A stretch of DNA of 64,000 nt from Lophium mytilinum (GCA_010093605.1 MU004183.1:2170001-2234000); one strand, 5' to 3'; counted from the first letter of the stretch, positions 1 through 13,559 are shown. The notes: generated by a model not told the origin, from the letters alone. Numbers and translations are program-made.

Positions 1-131
1 CACTTCTCGCTTTCAAGTTATACTCTATTTTCTTACCATCACATTCCTTTGTCGCCGGCCGACCGTTTACATTCTCTCAAAAGCCATTTCAAGTCAACTC
101 GTTTCGTTATCACACGCCTTAAACCGCAACT

Positions 132-336
132 ATGAAGTTCACCGCCATTATCGCTGCTGTGCTCTCTTTGGCTACGTTCGTTGTTGCGGCTCCAGTTCCT
201 GCGACTGAAGGTGGGGACAGATACTGTCTTGGTGCAGGACCTCAAGCTAATTCGTGTAGATGTTAAAGAACGCCAGAACCATGGCATGTGCGTCACTTCC
301 GACGGCACCACAGTCACCCAGATCGAGGGCTGCTAG
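132..336 (+). CDS. Small secreted peptide precursor (~51 aa, 2 exons)
   Basis: ATG at 132 and a signal peptide MKFTAIIAAVLSLATFVVA-AP. Intron 211-259 (GTGGGG...GCTAAT...TAG). Exon 2 gives DVKER-QNHGMCVTSDGTTVTQIEGC*. Not in the ORF track. Confidence 0.7.
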
Positions 337-5895: not shown

Positions 5896-6633
5896 ATGCC
5901 AGCCGCCCCAGTCAACAGCGCAAAGACCTCACGCGTGAGGCGGCGGAAGAAGCGTACAGAAGGTAAGCTTCAAGCAGCAGAATTTTCATTTCATCTTTTC
6001 CCTTCGGTGTACTAAGCCCAAACGCGCAGTCTCGTCGTCTGAGTCCTCTTCGTCGTCAGATTCGGAGAGCAGTAGCGAGTCAGAGAAGGAGGTGAAGCCT
6101 GCTGTTGCTAAGGTATGTTTCGCCTTTGAAAGGATGGGGAGAGCTGGTGGCTAACGTGCCTAAAGGCTCAGCCGCCGAAGGTAATTAAGAAGAAGAAGAG
6201 CACGAGGAAAGTACAGAAGAGCGAGTCGCCCGAGTTATCGAAGAGCTCGGAGAGCTCAGAGGGGAGTGATAGCAGCGTAGGTAATTTTCTTGTTACCTCG
6301 ATTCTATACCAGGAGGAAAGACTTGCCACATTTCGATTCTAGCATCACTTTCTCTCCTCGCCCAACGTCTCGGACATACCTCTACTTCTTATACTTGGTT
6401 AATAAGTCTAACGTGGTCTATAGCCCCCACCAAAACCCCAAGAACCCAGCGAAGATTTCAAGTCCTTCTACCTCCGCAGAGTGACGACCGAGCTCGCAGA
6501 TGACCTCGACAAAGTGCGCCAGTCCAACGATTTCCACGACCGGAGCTTGCCAATGCTCGTGCATGCTCTGCAGCAGGGAGAGAGTATCTTCTCGAAGGAG
6601 GAGAAGGCGAGGATTCTTGCAGGGAAGAAGTAG
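5896..6633 (+). CDS. RSA3: Ribosome assembly protein 3-like (4 exons)
   Basis: Basic RRRKKRTE plus a Ser/Glu-rich N-terminus. The last exon DFKSFYLRRVTTELADDLDKVRQSNDFHDRSLPMLVHALQQGESIF resembles the Rsa3 C-terminal domain. Three GT-AG introns. Confidence 0.8.
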
Positions 6634-7273
6634 GCGGTGTGCTTTTGGGTTTCCTGGGGTTTGGAGTTTATAGGGGGAATTTGAATCTCTTTCAGGGCCG
6701 TGAGGACTTGACATCAAGATCGCGTGCTGAGTAGTATGTTTAGAGGCCCTTCAAGGTTTTCAGTCCCCGCTCAAAATCATTGTACGAGGAGGCTGGTTTT
6801 GAGTGTGGTGCAATAGGATGGTAAGAACGACTTAGTCGCCTTGTGGTCTGATTCAGGGCGTTGAAAATGTTGCATTGAATTTCTTCTTTGAGCTGTACCC
6901 GCAGGCGTCCCTCAGGGGTCTTGCTAGATGTTCAAAAACATCTTATGACTGCCACTGATTGGAGCCTATTGCATAAGAATGTCATTCGTAGATATCAATT
7001 ACAAGTTATTCACTTCAGCTCGTTGAAGGCTTTACATCTCAACCTTGGTGGAGATAGTACTCGGGGAGGGACTTCAAATCATCAACCACGTATGCAAAGA
7101 CATCACCTGGGGCATCTAACTCGAAGCGTCGTAGAAAGACGTGTTGACATTGATTTCTTTTTGCTTCCCCAAGTCTAGAGCTAGCAACCATCATCATGTT
7201 TATCGTAACGTCGTTGCGATCATTGACAACAAGAAGACGACCTCAGGAAGACCTCCACTAGATCTCAACGCTC

Positions 7274-8225
7274 TCAGCCATCCTTCCATTCAAACTCGAT
7301 TCGCCATGCCAACAAGAACGGATGCTTAATGATGACCATATCATGTGCCAGCTTCATGACCTGCTCCCTCTTCTCCTTCTTCTCTTGAATGGGCAATACG
7401 ACGAGCAAGTCATAAGCGCGTTGTAGTAGCTTCTCCTCGTACCCCCTCCGCGTCTCATCTTCATTTGTCCAATCGATGATGTTCTGGTATAAATCCTCCA
7501 ACTCGCTTTTTTGGTAGACCTCTCGCCTCGTTTCCGAGGTTACTTCTGCGATCCTCGCACCAAGCCGTGTCTTGCGCTCGCCAATAAGCCGGTTTATAAG
7601 CTCTGATTCCGACGTCTCCGTGATTTCAGCCAGGCGCGTGAAAGTGAGGGAGGGGTGCGGCAGGCGGCCTTCGAGGAACGAGTAGATAGAGCTGGTGGGA
7701 AGCTGCGTCGCAAGAGCTTTGGCGTATTGGGCCTTGGTGCCGTGCTTGCGGGCGAAGTCGACGAGCTTGTCGATGCTGCTTTGGGCACGGTGTGCATCTT
7801 CTCTGCGAGTTGTTAGATTTTTCTTCAGCTATGGTCTGCATTATAGGTCATGCACGTACGCAGCGGCGTAGATCTCAGCCAATCGAAGTCCCACGGGTAT
7901 GTATTCGTCCACTCCTGCCGGACCCTGGCTCTCCAACACACTCTCTAGGCCCCTCCATGCCTGAAGGTCGTCGGGTTTGATCTTGGTCGCGGACTCGTAC
8001 GCTTTGGCGGCTTCTTGGGGTTTGCCTGACTTGTCGAGAGCGCGCCCTAGAAACAACTTCCTGAGTTGCTGTTAGATCTAGATGGCCAGGTGAAATCGGT
8101 CGACCTTACGCGAAGTAGTTCTGCGCGTCCGATTCGAGGACCTTGTTGGCTTGGGAAATCGCTTCAGGCCAATTTTGGGCGTCTATAGCAGCCTTTGCCG
8201 CTTTGAGGGCTGCTTTGGCGGACAT
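7274..8225 (-). CDS. SKI3: N-terminal half (281 aa) of the Ski complex TPR subunit Ski3, encoded as a separate gene
   Basis: Exons 8225-8110, 8060-7860 and 7802-7274 join in frame (846 nt): MSAKAALKAAKAAIDAQNWPEAI...NYFAKLFLGRAL...QAWRGL...FLEGRLPHP...IGERKTRLGA...MVIIKHPFLLAWRIEFEWKDG*. This matches the Ski3 N-terminus as I recognise it. Confidence 0.88.
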
Positions 8226-8565
8226 GGTGGGGGAGTGGTCTGGCAATTTAGATTGAATCACCGTTTAGGACGTACGGGAATGAGAGGGCTGGGCATCTTT
8301 ACAAGTGAAGAAGATAGCTAGGAGCTATAGCTAGGAGCATTAACGAGTCATGCGTTGTAGCTGTGAATAGTGAAGAGGTGATTGTAAAAGCCTGGAACGA
8401 TTGATGTCAAGGTGTCGATCTGCCGCTAGCATGAACGAGGTCAAGCGTCTTCCAGCCCTACGCCCAATACCACCACACAGGCCACCACATCCCTTCGACG
8501 CCGCTCATACAGTCACCTAACCTTGTTCTGTCTATGGAAGCATCAGGTAATCATACGCTTTCGAA

Positions 8566-11500
8566 ATGATGGATCAGATAGGCCTCGGCCTAGACGGTGC
8601 ACAAGATCTTCAAGACTTTGATATTGGCGTCGTCCGCGAATTCATCACGTTCTTCCCTGACAATGGCCTCTCCAAGGTCCTGAAGGGTTATCTGAGTAGT
8701 GGCGCCTCTCAATTTCCTCTAAAAGCAGCCAGTGCTACCGAAGAAGGAGGTGTCAGCCTCGAGGAGGACGAAGAAGATGTGCCCCTCACTTCGGAAGATT
8801 GTTTGGTGCTCATGACGGTTAATTCCCTATTCTTTCAGATTATACTTTCGACTGATAATTTATAAGGACGGCGTAGACGAGGCCAAAGACTCAGTTCTAG
8901 CCCACCGCCTGATGAGCGAGTACTATCTGTTTCTAGAAGAGTATGAAAGCGCCGTCGAGACTACCCGTAGGGGAGTCAAGCTTGTTGCTATCGAGACTAA
9001 GAAGTCGGGCCTCAAATTCCAAAAGTAGGATGCCCTGTCTTTTTCATTCTGAATATTGAATTAAAATGGTTGTGTAGGATTCTAGATGCGTTCAATAGCA
9101 CCCTCGCGACAGCATTGATCCACCACCAGGCCCCAAAAAATCATCCAGAAGCAAGAGAAATATTCGAAGAGATTCTTCTTCGAAAGCCACAATTCACTCC
9201 TGCCCTTATAGGGCTTGGTCTGATCTTAGAAGAGGAAGAAGAGTACGCCGAAGCAGTTACGTTTCTTGACAAAGCCTTCGAGAATGACCCGGGCAATGTA
9301 CGCATCGGCGCCGAAGCAGCCTGGTGTCGAGCGCTCAACGGAGATTATACCACTGGTCTGCGTGAGCTCGAAGAGTTCCTTGAGTATCCTCAGATGGATT
9401 TGAAGCTGCCTCGCGCTAGAGAGCTCCGAGCGCAGACATTGTATCGAATCGGTATCTGCCTTTGGGAATTGGACTCTTCTGCCGCTGCTCGGAAGGATCG
9501 ACAAGGAGCATATGCAAAATTCCTTGCCTCCATAAAGGCCAACCCCAACTTCGCACCTCCATATACCGGTCTCGGGATCTTTTACGAGGACTACAAAAAG
9601 GACCGAAAGAGGGCTCGACAATGTTTCCAGAAAGCCTTCGAGCTTTCTTCCTCTGAACTAATCGCAGCCGAACGTCTTGCCAGGTCGTTTGCGGATCAAG
9701 GAGAATGGGACATTGTCGAGGTTATCGCACAACGGGTGGTCGACTCTGGAAAGGTTAGGCCAGCACCTGGCTCTAAAAAGAAGAAGGGCGTAAGTTGGCC
9801 ATTCTCTGCTTTAGGTGTTGTTCAAATGAACAAGCAAGAGTACCAGAAGAGCATCATTTCGTTCTTGTCGGCCCTCAGAATCAGTCCAGACGACTACCAT
9901 TCTTATGTTGGATTAGGAGAGAGCTACCACAACTCTGGTCGCTACAATTCAGCTTCGCGGACGTTCAACTATGCCGAAAACCCGACGGATGGAGTCGACA
10001 TGAAGAAATCCGACGAGAGTTGGTTTACCAAGTACATGCTAGCGAACGTTCACCGTGAACTGGGTGAGTTTGAAGAAGCTATTCGAGGGTACGATTTAGT
10101 GCTAGAGGAACGCCCGAAAGAATTTGGAGTTTCCATTGCTCTACTTCAAACTTTGGTAGAAAGCGCGTGGAGGAATATTGAGACTGGCTTCTTTGGGGCC
10201 GCCGCCGATAGCGCTATACGAGCCATTGACGTCGCTATATCCGTGTCCGAATACAAGCCGCAAGCATTCAACTTATGGAAAGCCGTTGGAGATGCTTCAG
10301 TTATATTTTCCTGGGTTCAAGAGCGGCTAAGCGACATACTACTGCGGAAGATAGAGAGCCTGCTTAAGGTTGATGTCGACAGCGGCATCTATGGCCTCTT
10401 CCATGAGACTGATGGTATCGGAGCCGACCAACTTGATCTCCTGTCTGCAGACGGCCAGACAAGCCCTATGCTCGCTCGGTCTCTCCATGCATCGATTCTT
10501 GCACAGAAGCGGGCTATTCATAGCTGTGCAAACGATCTACATGCACAAGCAGTGGCTTGGTATAATCTGGGATGGACAGAACACCGCGCTCATGTTTGCC
10601 TGGAACAGAAACAAGATTCTTCCCAGGGAAAGGCAAGCACCACACTGCTTAGAGCAGCCATGAAGTGTTTCAAGCGCGCTATCGAACTTGAGGCAGGTAA
10701 TTCCGAATTCTGGAACGCTCTCGGTGTCATCACAACACCATTGAATCCCAAAGTAGCTCAGCACTCCTTCGTCCGCAGCCTGCACCTGAACGAACGTAGC
10801 GTGCGCGCATGGACGAATCTAGGGACCCTTTACTTGATCCAAAATGATTTGGAACTCGCTCACCAAGCGTTTTCTCGTGCACAATCTACAGATCCAGATT
10901 ACGCTCATGCCTGGCTCGGAGAAGGTCTAATTGCTCTCCTTTACGGTGATCCAAAGGAGGCCCTCTCACACTTCACCCACGCGTTCGAGATTTCCGACTC
11001 TGCGAGCTTAGTCTCCAAGCGCCAGTACGCCCTTTCGTCGTTCGACTACCTCATTTCCACCCCGTCTGCCTCGAGCAACATTACGAATCTCATACAACCC
11101 CTCTTCGCCCTCCATCAACTCGCATTCCAGAGGCCTGATGATGTGCCATACCGGCACCTCGCGTCCCTTTTCATGGAACGCGTTGGCAACCACGACGCCG
11201 CAAGTGAGGCTCTGACTTCTCTATGTGCAACAGCCGAGCAGGAATACGAAGAATCCGAAGCCCCGGCCTCGCTCTCCCGATATGCGCACGCGAAGACAGA
11301 CCTAGCGAGGAATAAACTTGCCGCCCACAACTATTCCGAGGCTGTAGAGGACGCAGAGACGGCATTAGATCTGACTTCTGACGCTGACTCCTGCTCCATG
11401 ACCCCCGAGGTGCTTCGCAAGACTCGACTTTCTGCTCGGCTTACATCTGGGCTTGGCCACTTCTACCTCAACGATATGGACAGCTCTCTGGCAGCTTTCC

Positions 11501-12090
11501 GCACGGCACTAGAGGAGAGTCACAGTTCGCCTGATGTTGTGTGTCTAGTTGCTGAGGTCCTTTGGGCAAAGGGCGGCGAAGAAGAGAAGTCGGTCGCTCG
11601 CGAGCAGCTCTTCGAGAGCGTTTCGAAGCACCCGGACCACGTTGGCTCGATCACGCTGCTTGGTGCCATGGCTGCGCTGGACGAGGATACTGAGACGATG
11701 GAAGCAGTTCACGATGATCTGGCTTCGTTGAGGACGAAGCCGAATCTAGATGTCATCCAGCTTACTCGCGTCGAGAAGGTCCTTGATGCCATTGCGTTCA
11801 TCAGCGGGGGTGAAGAGGGCGCCGAGAGGGAGACTAGACAGAGTATCATGCTTGCACCTGGGAAGGTGACTGGATGGGCACAATTGGCCGAGGTCAGCGA
11901 AGAGATATTCCCGGCACAGATGGCACTCAAAACGGCGGAAAAGAGTGTCCCGCCATTAGGCGTGCTGGGTGCGGTGGACTTGAGTGCAGCATTCTCAGGT
12001 ATAGGAACCCTGGGAGATGCTCAGAGAGCAGTCTCATTGGCGCCCTGGGCTGAAGGCGGCTGGGAGGCTATGAGGACTGTCCTCGAGTGA
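8566..12090 (+). CDS. SKI3: C-terminal part (~1140 aa) of Ski3, TPR-repeat superkiller protein
   Basis: Exons 8566-8817, 8867-9024 and 9078-12090 are in frame. Motifs include FFPDNGLSKVLKGYL, ARQCFQKAFEL, FWNALGV, AQHSFVRSLHLN and AFSRAQSTDPDYAHAWLG. An alternative start at ATG 8534 with intron 8547-8593 is also possible. Confidence 0.93.
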
Positions 12091-12577
12091 GGCGAGGCGG
12101 AGATTCATGAAGTCTGGAGGCGCGGAGACTCGTCTCGATCCTGATAAGCCCAAGACATCAAGATCAAGCATATCTTGTTTGGAGTATTGAGCGTGCGACT
12201 AGGCCCCGAGTAGTTCCCCTTCGTATACCTATACGAGACTAGCGTGGGAGTTGATTGGCGTGATGCTTACACTCCCCTGTTCTGCAAGTCGTGACTCGAA
12301 ATCCCTCAGCTTCGTGTGGCAATAGTGAATCACCTCGCTGAGACCTGCAGAATGCAGCAGCCGTTTAGCCATTTCCACACTGCAAATCTTGGCATGGAGG
12401 TGTGGTTGGTGAGCATAAGGGCGGATCACGTGAGAGATTAAGCGAGAGGCCAACTTTCGGGGCGAACGTCAATTTGAATTGATAAGCAGCGGATCGCACA
12501 AAACACCGACGTCGCCGTCGCCATCTTTCTTTCATCCTCCCTACCACCCCCCGAAACCTCACCTCGACACCTTCAAA

Positions 12578-13559
12578 ATGGCCCGCCGACCAGCCCGCTG
12601 CTACCGCTACTGCAAGAACAAGCCGTACCCCAAGTCCCGCTTCAACCGCGGTGTGCCCGACCCCAAGATCCGCATCTTCGATTTGGGCCGCAAGCGTGCC
12701 TCCGTCGACGATTTCCCGCTCTGCGTCCATCTTGTTTCCAACGAGTTGGAACAGCTCAGCTCCGAGGCGCTCGAAGCCGCGCGTATCTGGTAAATAACAC
12801 CCCAGGCGAAGCTTCAAGACAGCGACTGTCAGCTATATGAATTTTTACTAACCTGTCACAGTGCCAACAAGTGCGTAAACCCCTCAAACCTCTTCTCCGA
12901 CCGTCGGCGGACATATACTGCATACGAGGAAGAAATTATGGGCTGATACATTGGATTTAGGTACTTGACTAAGAACGGTGGCAAAGATGCGTTCCATCTA
13001 CGCGTGAGGGTATGTTTCGAACAGAAGATATCAAAAAATGGCATTGACTAATTATATCCAGGCCCACCCTTACCACGTCGTCCGCATCAACAAGATGGTA
13101 AACAGATCACCCTTTTGAGTGACGAGCGGAAATCTAACAATCTCAAGTTGTCGTGCGCTGGTGCCGATCGTCTTCAGACCGGTATGCGTGGTGCCTTCGG
13201 AAAGCCACAGGGTCTCGTTGCCCGTGTCAAGATCGGACAGATTCTCCTCAGCGTCCGGACTAGGGACTCCCGTATGTCTCAATCGCTTCAAAACCTGGAT
13301 TACAAATACTGATTATAAATGCAATTTAGAACGTGCTCACGCTCTCGAGGCCATGCGCCGATCCCAGTACAAGTTCCCCGGCCGCCAAAAGATCATCGTC
13401 TCCAAGAACTGGGGCTTCACCTCCATGCGCCGCGAGGAATACATCGAGGCCAAGAAGGCCGGTACCATCAAGCCTGACGGTTGCTACATCAAGATTCTGT
13501 CTACCAACGGACCGATTGCGAAGAACGTGGCGGCTTTCCCCTCTGCTTTCACTGCGTAA
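12578..13559 (+). CDS. RPL10: 60S ribosomal protein L10 (uL16), 6 exons
   Basis: [39 protein letters not shown]...[20 protein letters not shown]...KFPGRQKII. Five introns, including a 9-nt micro-exon at 12862-12870. Confidence 0.98.

Follow-up and report, generated by a model that had tools for sequence, protein, structure and literature searches.

Ski3 is the tetratricopeptide repeat (TPR) scaffold of the Ski2-Ski3-Ski8 exosome cofactor. In the window analyzed here, a stretch of 64,000 nucleotides from Lophium mytilinum (GCA_010093605.1, MU004183.1:2170001-2234000), the SKI3 gene lies in two pieces on opposite strands, and the locus raises the question whether this scaffold is truly cut into two genes and, if so, how the cut arose and what the detached piece does. 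An initial annotation, made from the sequence, had described two intact genes lying head to head. We rebuilt both gene models (Table 1) and each was identical (100%) to a database protein of L. mytilinum, the N half to P0121 (281 amino acids, aa; labelled hypothetical protein) and the C half to P0241 (1140 aa; labelled TPR-like protein), which upheld that description. We regard it as virtually certain that this is a real, old and selected split of SKI3. The best overall explanation, which we hold to be very probable, is one old inversion that led to a Ski3 of two chains, whose genes share a divergent promoter.

Structure of the split SKI3 locus

The canonical single polypeptide of ~1400-1600 aa is replaced at this locus by products of 281 aa and 1140 aa encoded on opposite strands. 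The two introns of the N half measure 49 and 57 nt and have GT..AG ends on the minus strand, and its protein ends in ...EFEWKDG, followed by a TGA at 7274-7276. An in-frame TAA at 8548-8550 precedes the start codon of the C half (ATG, 8566) by five codons, and the C-half protein begins with MMDQIGLGLDGAQDLQDFDIGVV. A stop at the break and an in-frame start close to where homology resumes (C-half residues 10-13) had both been reported, and both were found. The gap between the halves, put earlier at ~310-340 bp, agreed with start codons lying 340 bp apart; the summed length came near the ~1410 aa first given, and the exact figure is 1421 aa.

The two genes encode two parts of Ski3

By sequence, domain and fold, the two genes are two parts of Ski3. 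Residues 4-280 of the N half aligned to yeast Ski3 5-293 (E 3e-22), and in the C half residues 13-93 aligned to yeast 295-378 and residues 59-1022 to yeast 388-1327 (E 3e-111); human SKIC3/TTC37 was matched with E values of 1e-12 (N half) and 1e-43 (C half). In an alignment that included full-length fungal orthologues, the N half ended at the conserved ...LAWxIExEW(R/K) and the C half restarted within about one residue, in agreement with the yeast alignment, which passes from 5-293 to 295 onward; the halves abut without a gap, as had been proposed. In alignments of N halves the conservation ended at ..EW(R/K), with variable tails of 2-8 aa beyond it, and residues 1-12 of the C half form a new leader. 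The Ski3-type N-terminal domain PF18833 (TPR_22) was recognized at N-half residues 141-228 (E 5.4e-28; score 97.6 bits, cut-off 27.2), and the same Pfam scan did not find it in the C half.

Furthermore, the N half modelled alone with AlphaFold2 gave 14 helices, a predicted local distance difference test score (pLDDT) of 91.4 and a predicted template modelling score (pTM) of 0.80. VIA-align superimposed residues 1..281 of this model on 4buj_B 2..294 (Z 18.3, root-mean-square deviation 3.0, 272 residues aligned), the sole structural match covering the entire model, and the Foldseek TMq was 0.78 with 4buj_B against at most 0.40 with generic TPR proteins. The model suggests that the 281-aa protein would fold as a stand-alone helical module of seven hairpins, corresponding to the distal N-arm of Ski3.

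Table 1. Positions of the SKI3 halves and of associated features in the window
Feature	Position	Strand	Details
N-half gene (Ski3 distal N-arm)	7274..8225	-	3 exons, 281 aa
N-half coding exons	8225-8110, 8060-7860, 7802-7274 (TGA included)	-	model rebuilt from sequence
C-half gene (rest of Ski3)	8566..12090	+	3 exons, 1140 aa
C-half coding exons	8566-8817, 8867-9024, 9078-12090	+	model rebuilt from sequence
Shared divergent spacer between the two start codons	8226..8565	.	340 bp; presumed bidirectional promoter
Left junction	7274..7279	.	last Ski3-like codons, stop codon directly after, then non-Ski3 sequence
Right junction	8593..8604	.	homology to unsplit Ski3 restarts, D-G-A-Q, C-half residues 10-13
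N-half mRNA, extent in one RNA contig	7168..8354	-	5' UTR ~129 nt, 3' UTR ~106 nt (UTR, untranslated region)
Upstream open reading frame in C-half leader	8534..8569	+	11 codons; TGA overlaps main ATG (ATGA)
Rsa3 gene	5939..6749	+	Pfam PF14615 Rsa3, E 8e-22; tail to tail with N half
Ribosomal protein L10 (RPL10) gene	12575-13556		Pfam Ribosomal_L16; just downstream of C half

Both junctions are present in DNA and RNA contigs

Contigs of public sequencing runs (X1, X3, X4 and X5 below) were compared with window positions 6000-10500. A DNA contig of X1 (record 1, 7370 nt), made with another assembler, covered 6000-10230 with 0 differences and spanned both junctions; X1 is perhaps the source sample of the assembly. 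At its loose end at 10230 the contig carried 35 letters foreign to the window, which resemble a recombinase-site linker and represent a library artefact. X3 was taken as RNA because its contigs lack introns. Its record 5 (1106 nt) consisted of the pieces 8354-8109, 8059-7860 and 7802-7168 with 0 differences, both N-half introns being removed, and sequencing-adapter letters came after position 8354, while record 6 began at 8478 and ran through the C half with the introns 8817/8866 and 9024/9078 removed. Each X3 transcript crossed one junction as assembled and neither extended into the other half, and the spacer stretch 8355-8477 had no RNA contig coverage. The contig depths in X3 were 1120 for the N half and 281 for the C half, single figures per contig that do not serve to rank the genes. 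The two divergent mRNAs that had been anticipated were accordingly seen as spliced and separate contigs.

X4 and X5 come from a different organism, ~95% identical, and both contained spliced N-half contigs. Record 8 of X4 (7226-7483) bridged the left junction with the stop codon kept; as X4 and X5 do not cover 8416-9019, their junction evidence concerns the left junction only. Since the two RNA contigs and the DNA contig are collinear with the window across both junctions, the mis-assembly which the initial annotation had kept as an option is rejected.

The split is shared by a large group of Dothideomycetes

A search with the N half for proteins of similar length gave 177 matches, 120 of them listed, and all 58 organism-named entries among the listed matches were N-only proteins of 261-301 aa. 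They belong to Pleosporales, Mytilinidiales, Gloniales and Zopfia, and include Glonium, Lepidopterella, Delitschia, Zopfia, Dendryphion, Lophiotrema, Didymella, Plenodomus, Pyrenophora and Stemphylium, together with about twenty Alternaria entries. By the taxonomy looked up for four genera, Lophium belongs to Mytilinidiales, Glonium to Gloniales and Alternaria to Pleosporales, and Zopfia is incertae sedis; the remaining N-only genera are members of these orders. The search with the C half returned matching C-only proteins of ~1140 aa in the same species. Both halves were listed on equal-sized contigs in 33 species, and the two carried consecutive locus tags in five, namely Alternaria rosae, A. 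dauci, A. incomplexa, Plenodomus lingam and P. biglobosus. No genus of the split clade was found among the organism-named entries of the 120 listed longer matches of the N half. Full-length proteins of 1397-1434 aa were noticed in the outgroups Macrophomina, Aplosporella, Rhizodiscina and Aureobasidium, and, in the C-half search, full-length proteins also in Diplodia, Coniosporium and Patellaria.

Two database proteins, P0003 and P0010, were considered as intron-truncated forms and rejected as such, being ordinary N halves read through an intron; the metagenome locus L002, which is probably that of P0010, is head to head. The source labels of the halves are inconsistent (hypothetical protein, TPR-like protein, protein prenylyltransferase, TadD), and in one species the label 'Superkiller protein 3' stands on both halves.

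At the DNA level, 54 metagenome-contig loci were retrieved with an alignment of 16 N halves and examined by tblastn with both halves and the window neighbours. The C half lay upstream on the opposite strand, head to head, in 21 of the 54, and nine further loci showed the N half followed by Rsa3 tail to tail, with no C half downstream; N and C were collinear on one strand, that is unsplit, in another 21, and three were too short to be classed. As many of these loci are near-copies, the counts of split (30) and unsplit (21) loci overstate the number of organisms. In 25 of the 30 split loci the gene next to the N half, on the other strand, was Rsa3, which makes it a conserved marker of this arrangement; it was not found near any of the 21 unsplit loci, which represent distant taxa at 47-62% identity (72% in L035). 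Given that Rsa3 stands next to split N halves and near no unsplit locus, the split loci have one common arrangement, C half, spacer, N half and Rsa3. The spacer measured 293-370 bp, with a median of 307 (n=7 loci in which both starts could be placed, the window included), and of the 22 split loci with ~450 nt or more of sequence preceding the N-half match, 21 kept the divergent spacer. In the exception, L007, no C half occurs in the 990 nt that precede the N half; positions 1-990 of this locus hold AT-rich DNA and an open reading frame (ORF) which resembles the DNA-binding region of a transposase, and in that organism the two halves may have become separated through an insertion. L001 is a 1069-nt, mRNA-like contig with a complete intron-free N-half ORF of 287 aa. 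In the collinear loci we noticed no intron at the cut position, and in most of them the N and C matches ran on directly.

Single origin, selection and age of the split

A maximum-likelihood tree of 45 proteins, all from named species, combined 22 C halves with 23 full-length sequences over 1136 columns, which in effect correspond to the shared C region. All 22 split rows formed one clade, with a Shimodaira-Hasegawa-like approximate likelihood ratio test (SH-aLRT) value of 100, nested among unsplit Dothideomycetes; all 23 rows outside it were unsplit, and one change was needed. The ratio of N to C p-distances was 1.03 in the split group (120 pairs, 16 species) as compared with 1.00 in unsplit Dothideomycetes (120 pairs, 16 species), and as the ratio is alike in both, the detached piece is as constrained as before. 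Within the N-half coding sequence, 16 of the 18 differences from the ~95% identical relative were synonymous, among the best-supported 40 of 89 window differences.

Retention across the clade and purifying selection bear out the suggestion that both halves are maintained. On the other hand, with the split common to the entire clade and no relaxed constraint, the recent null mutation that the initial annotation had kept as an option is rejected. The event is no peculiarity of one strain, being old and found across Pleosporomycetidae and Zopfia. The split postdates the class and was already in place in the ancestor from which Mytilinidiales, Gloniales and Pleosporales descend. One genome study puts the age of the class at ~280 million years and the divergence of Cenococcum and Lepidopterella at 71 million years (PMC5023957).

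Relation of the detached arm to the SKI complex

The yeast data indicate which part of Ski3 was cut off. According to PMC10659929, residues 1-401 of yeast Ski3 are without density, residues 402-639 contact the Ski2 arch and the two together hold a closed, autoinhibited state, and a construct without residues 1-521 still assembles. With the cut at ~294 and the arch contact at 402-639, the distal arm alone has been detached and the arch contact remains on the main chain. The 'detachable N-terminal arm' of the initial annotation is therefore to be narrowed: it stands for the distal part (yeast 2-294), while the contact with the Ski2 arch stays on the C half.

Comparison with known Ski3 proteins defines what is new in these fungi. 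Saccharomyces cerevisiae Ski3 (PDB 4BUJ, 5MC6, 8Q9T) is orthologous over the whole length and has an acidic linker shortly past the cut site, as has Lophium, but it is a single chain of 1432 aa, whereas Lophium uses two genes on opposite strands and two mRNAs, with a new stop codon and 3' UTR for the N half and a new leader and start codon for the C half. Human SKIC3/TTC37 (PDB 7QDR, 9G8O), of the same family, is likewise a single chain, of ~1560 aa; in the excerpted text of PMC8860381 its TPR 1-8 are flexible in all structural data, a flexible N arm which would fit a module without rigid covalent link, and no natural split is reported there. In the engineered yeast Ski3 lacking 1-521 (PMC10659929), the scaffold assembles without the N arm, and arm and Ski2 arch restrain activity. 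The natural cut lies at ~294 as against the engineered 521, and Lophium keeps the detached piece as a protein of its own, whereas the yeast construct deletes it.

Both halves show spliced RNA contigs, purifying selection and a conserved divergent layout, and we consider it probable that the N half continues to work together with the SKI complex. N half and C half would then be two bound chains: the 281-aa module would join the complex as a non-covalent fourth chain, probably stacked on the two opening helices of the C half, and the acidic linker would tie these helices to the rest of the scaffold. Core autoinhibition would be unchanged, since the arch-contacting stretch of the N-arm has stayed on the C half. 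More tentatively, the distal N-arm might have become an autonomous, exchangeable fourth SKI subunit with its own mRNA and a level set apart from that of the scaffold, which at present we think doubtful.

The equal relative rates of N and C, and the segments at the cut, give indirect hints of an association of the two halves. Conservation of N-half residues 244-278 was 0.77 in the split clade against 0.59 in unsplit proteins, and that of C-half residues 13-48 was 0.72 against 0.54, whereas five of the other seven segments had split/unsplit ratios of 1.06-1.15 and one of 1.19; the contrast is drawn between clades of different depth and from non-independent pairs. The helices flanking the cut may accordingly be relatively better kept in the split clade.

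Several points weigh against a two-chain Ski3 of old and single origin. The ratio of the poorly alignable acidic linker was larger still than that of the junction helices, and the depth and non-independence just mentioned apply to the whole segment contrast. X3, with 0 differences from the window, may be of the same strain and counts as an independent library, not as an independent isolate, and the RNA evidence consists of assembled contigs. A full-length SKI3 elsewhere in Lophium is excluded indirectly, no longer protein of more than 68% identity having been found among the listed matches. To these are added the near-copies among the metagenome loci, the distance of the unsplit taxa in which Rsa3 was sought, and L007, which shows that adjacency of the halves is not obligatory.

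Alternative explanations for the retained halves

The alternative that survives best is that the 281-aa protein works outside the SKI complex, kept for a job of its own, whether new or an ancestral function of the distal arm for which the scaffold was never required, and that the C half alone is a working Ski3. The absence of density for yeast residues 1-401 (PMC10659929) and the flexibility of human TPR 1-8 (PMC8860381) agree with it, and so does the statement in the former paper that yeast complexes without residues 1-521 still assemble and were used for structures. The N half of L007 without an adjacent C half and the confident fold of the N half modelled alone point the same way. Nothing speaks directly against such an independent function, but the relative rates of N and C are equal to those of unsplit fungi, the divergent spacer of ~300 bp is kept in all but one of the loci in which it could be followed, and the helices flanking the cut rank with the best-kept parts in the split clade. 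On balance we judge an independent function rather unlikely, and a two-chain Ski3 remains the reading we prefer.

That the products are rejoined into one full-length Ski3, through trans-splicing at the mRNA or protein level, is highly improbable. We found no evidence in its support; contigs drop rare forms, and a minor joined RNA could have escaped notice. Against it, the N-half ORF stops exactly at the cut and is not preceded there by a GT donor, the N-half tails vary by lineage while the C halves have conserved leaders of their own, e.g., MASHAD.., the RNA contigs carry ordinary UTRs, and no intein-like segment was found, Pfam giving TPR families only. The chance of an assembly inversion, or of a recent inactivating rearrangement in one strain, is negligible as far as contigs can tell: the assembly may derive from X1, and X3 may be the same strain, but DNA and RNA contigs run across both junctions, and across the left one also in the ~95% identical organism, the same architecture recurs in dozens of independently assembled genomes and the 30 metagenome loci, and the evident purifying selection argues against a recent null.

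Origin of the split

As the halves diverge from a common spacer, we argued for an inversion. SKI3 would have been cut once, in the ancestor of Pleosporomycetidae, at the position matching yeast residue 294, and an inversion of ~1.3 kb would have turned round the promoter together with some 280 codons at the start of the gene. The inverted N piece would then have read into foreign DNA, stopping within 1-8 codons and coming to lie tail to tail with Rsa3, the C piece would have acquired a short leader with its own ATG, and the old 5' region would have become a divergent promoter of ~300 bp driving both genes. The tails of the N halves differ in length and sequence between lineages, and the C-half leaders read MASHAD.. 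in Pleosporales and M plus 5-7 residues plus GLDGA.. in the group of Lophium, Glonium and Lepidopterella. The order ancestral to an inversion would be Rsa3 upstream on the same strand; the counts for Rsa3 beside the N half are those given above, 25/30 in split loci and 0/21 in the distant unsplit ones. A simple inversion is, in our estimation, the likely origin. The inversion first proposed as the cause of the fission fits the layout, with an inverted duplication and reciprocal loss as its alternative.

By this second route, SKI3 would have been duplicated in inverted, head-to-head orientation, after which the C part was lost from one copy and the N part from the other. It would also yield a head-to-head pair with a short spacer, and would do so without any functionless moment. 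Breakpoint inverted repeats were sought and only short, chance-like pairs were found, none of them sizeable, so that neither route is favoured by repeats. Three events are needed, however, as compared with one, the halves abut within about one residue, and tblastn found no leftover C-like sequence by the N half and no N-like sequence by the C half, either in the window or at any locus; this remnant test is weak, as leftover sequence would have decayed anyway over this time. We consider the duplication route unlikely and retain the simple inversion.

Asp-Gly is coded on both sides of the cut in Lophium, at 7277-7282 (N-half tail ..KDG) and at 8593-8598 (C half ..LDGAQ), and similar residues flank the cut in Lepidopterella (..RNG / ..LDGAQ) and Zopfia (..GHG / ..FDGAH). 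The pair could be a remnant of a few bases duplicated by staggered breaks, or chance; it could also be a small duplicated remnant of the kind that the duplication route would leave.

Other features of the locus

The upstream ORF (uORF) in the C-half leader falls within record 6 of X3. The loci L010 and L053 have a uORF at the equivalent place, of equal length and with a different peptide; L054 aligns like these two at the uORF, and the start-codon scan placed its start elsewhere. A uORF overlapping the start was not found in loci of Pleosporales type, in which the C half begins MASH/MASP/MASQ... The uORF may couple translation of the C half to reinitiation.

Within the spacer, positions 8314-8339 hold a 13-nt tandem repeat which contains a 10-nt palindrome, and an X4 contig changes strand at the joint 8336/8374 (depth 8.3), most likely an assembly artefact at the palindrome. 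Rsa3 was spliced in record 4 of X3. RPL10 adjoins the C half in the window alone among the split loci, and was likewise not found near the unsplit loci; the C-half contig of X3 is long enough to reach this gene.

Significance of a two-gene SKI3

A full-text literature search, with most subscription journals outside its coverage, found no paper on the SKI3 split; both halves are public under assorted names, and the split is undescribed as far as searched. The inconsistent labels could make SKI3 orthology tables wrong for Pleosporomycetidae and Zopfia. Fungal gene fissions, in which one ancestral gene becomes two adjacent genes and both are retained, form the nearest class of events. What sets the present case apart is the divergent layout of the two halves around one spacer, which points to an inversion, the occurrence of the split throughout a subclass, and the fact that the gene affected codes for a well-studied structural scaffold. 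The locus is a tidy example of a small inversion splitting a gene with both halves placed on one divergent promoter, if, as is likely, an inversion was the cause.

In structural work on yeast and human complexes, so far as the portions at hand extend, Ski3 is treated as a single chain and its distal arm has no named binding partner. The split offers a natural experiment over a whole subclass, including Alternaria, Pyrenophora, Plenodomus, Parastagonospora and Bipolaris. Many fungi of this clade host double-stranded RNA viruses. The arm has been separate since before the orders diverged and is as conserved as the rest of Ski3, implying a selected function with no need of a covalent link. The 281-aa protein is also a handle, which can be tagged, pulled down, deleted or titrated alone. 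If the arm should prove to be an exchangeable subunit, then with its separate mRNA, and with the start-overlapping uORF that the C half carries in Lophium and in loci of Gloniales type, the cell could tune the share of SKI complex that carries it, and hence substrate docking or the strictness of autoinhibition, and the long-unclear role of the arm could be studied in trans in these fungi.

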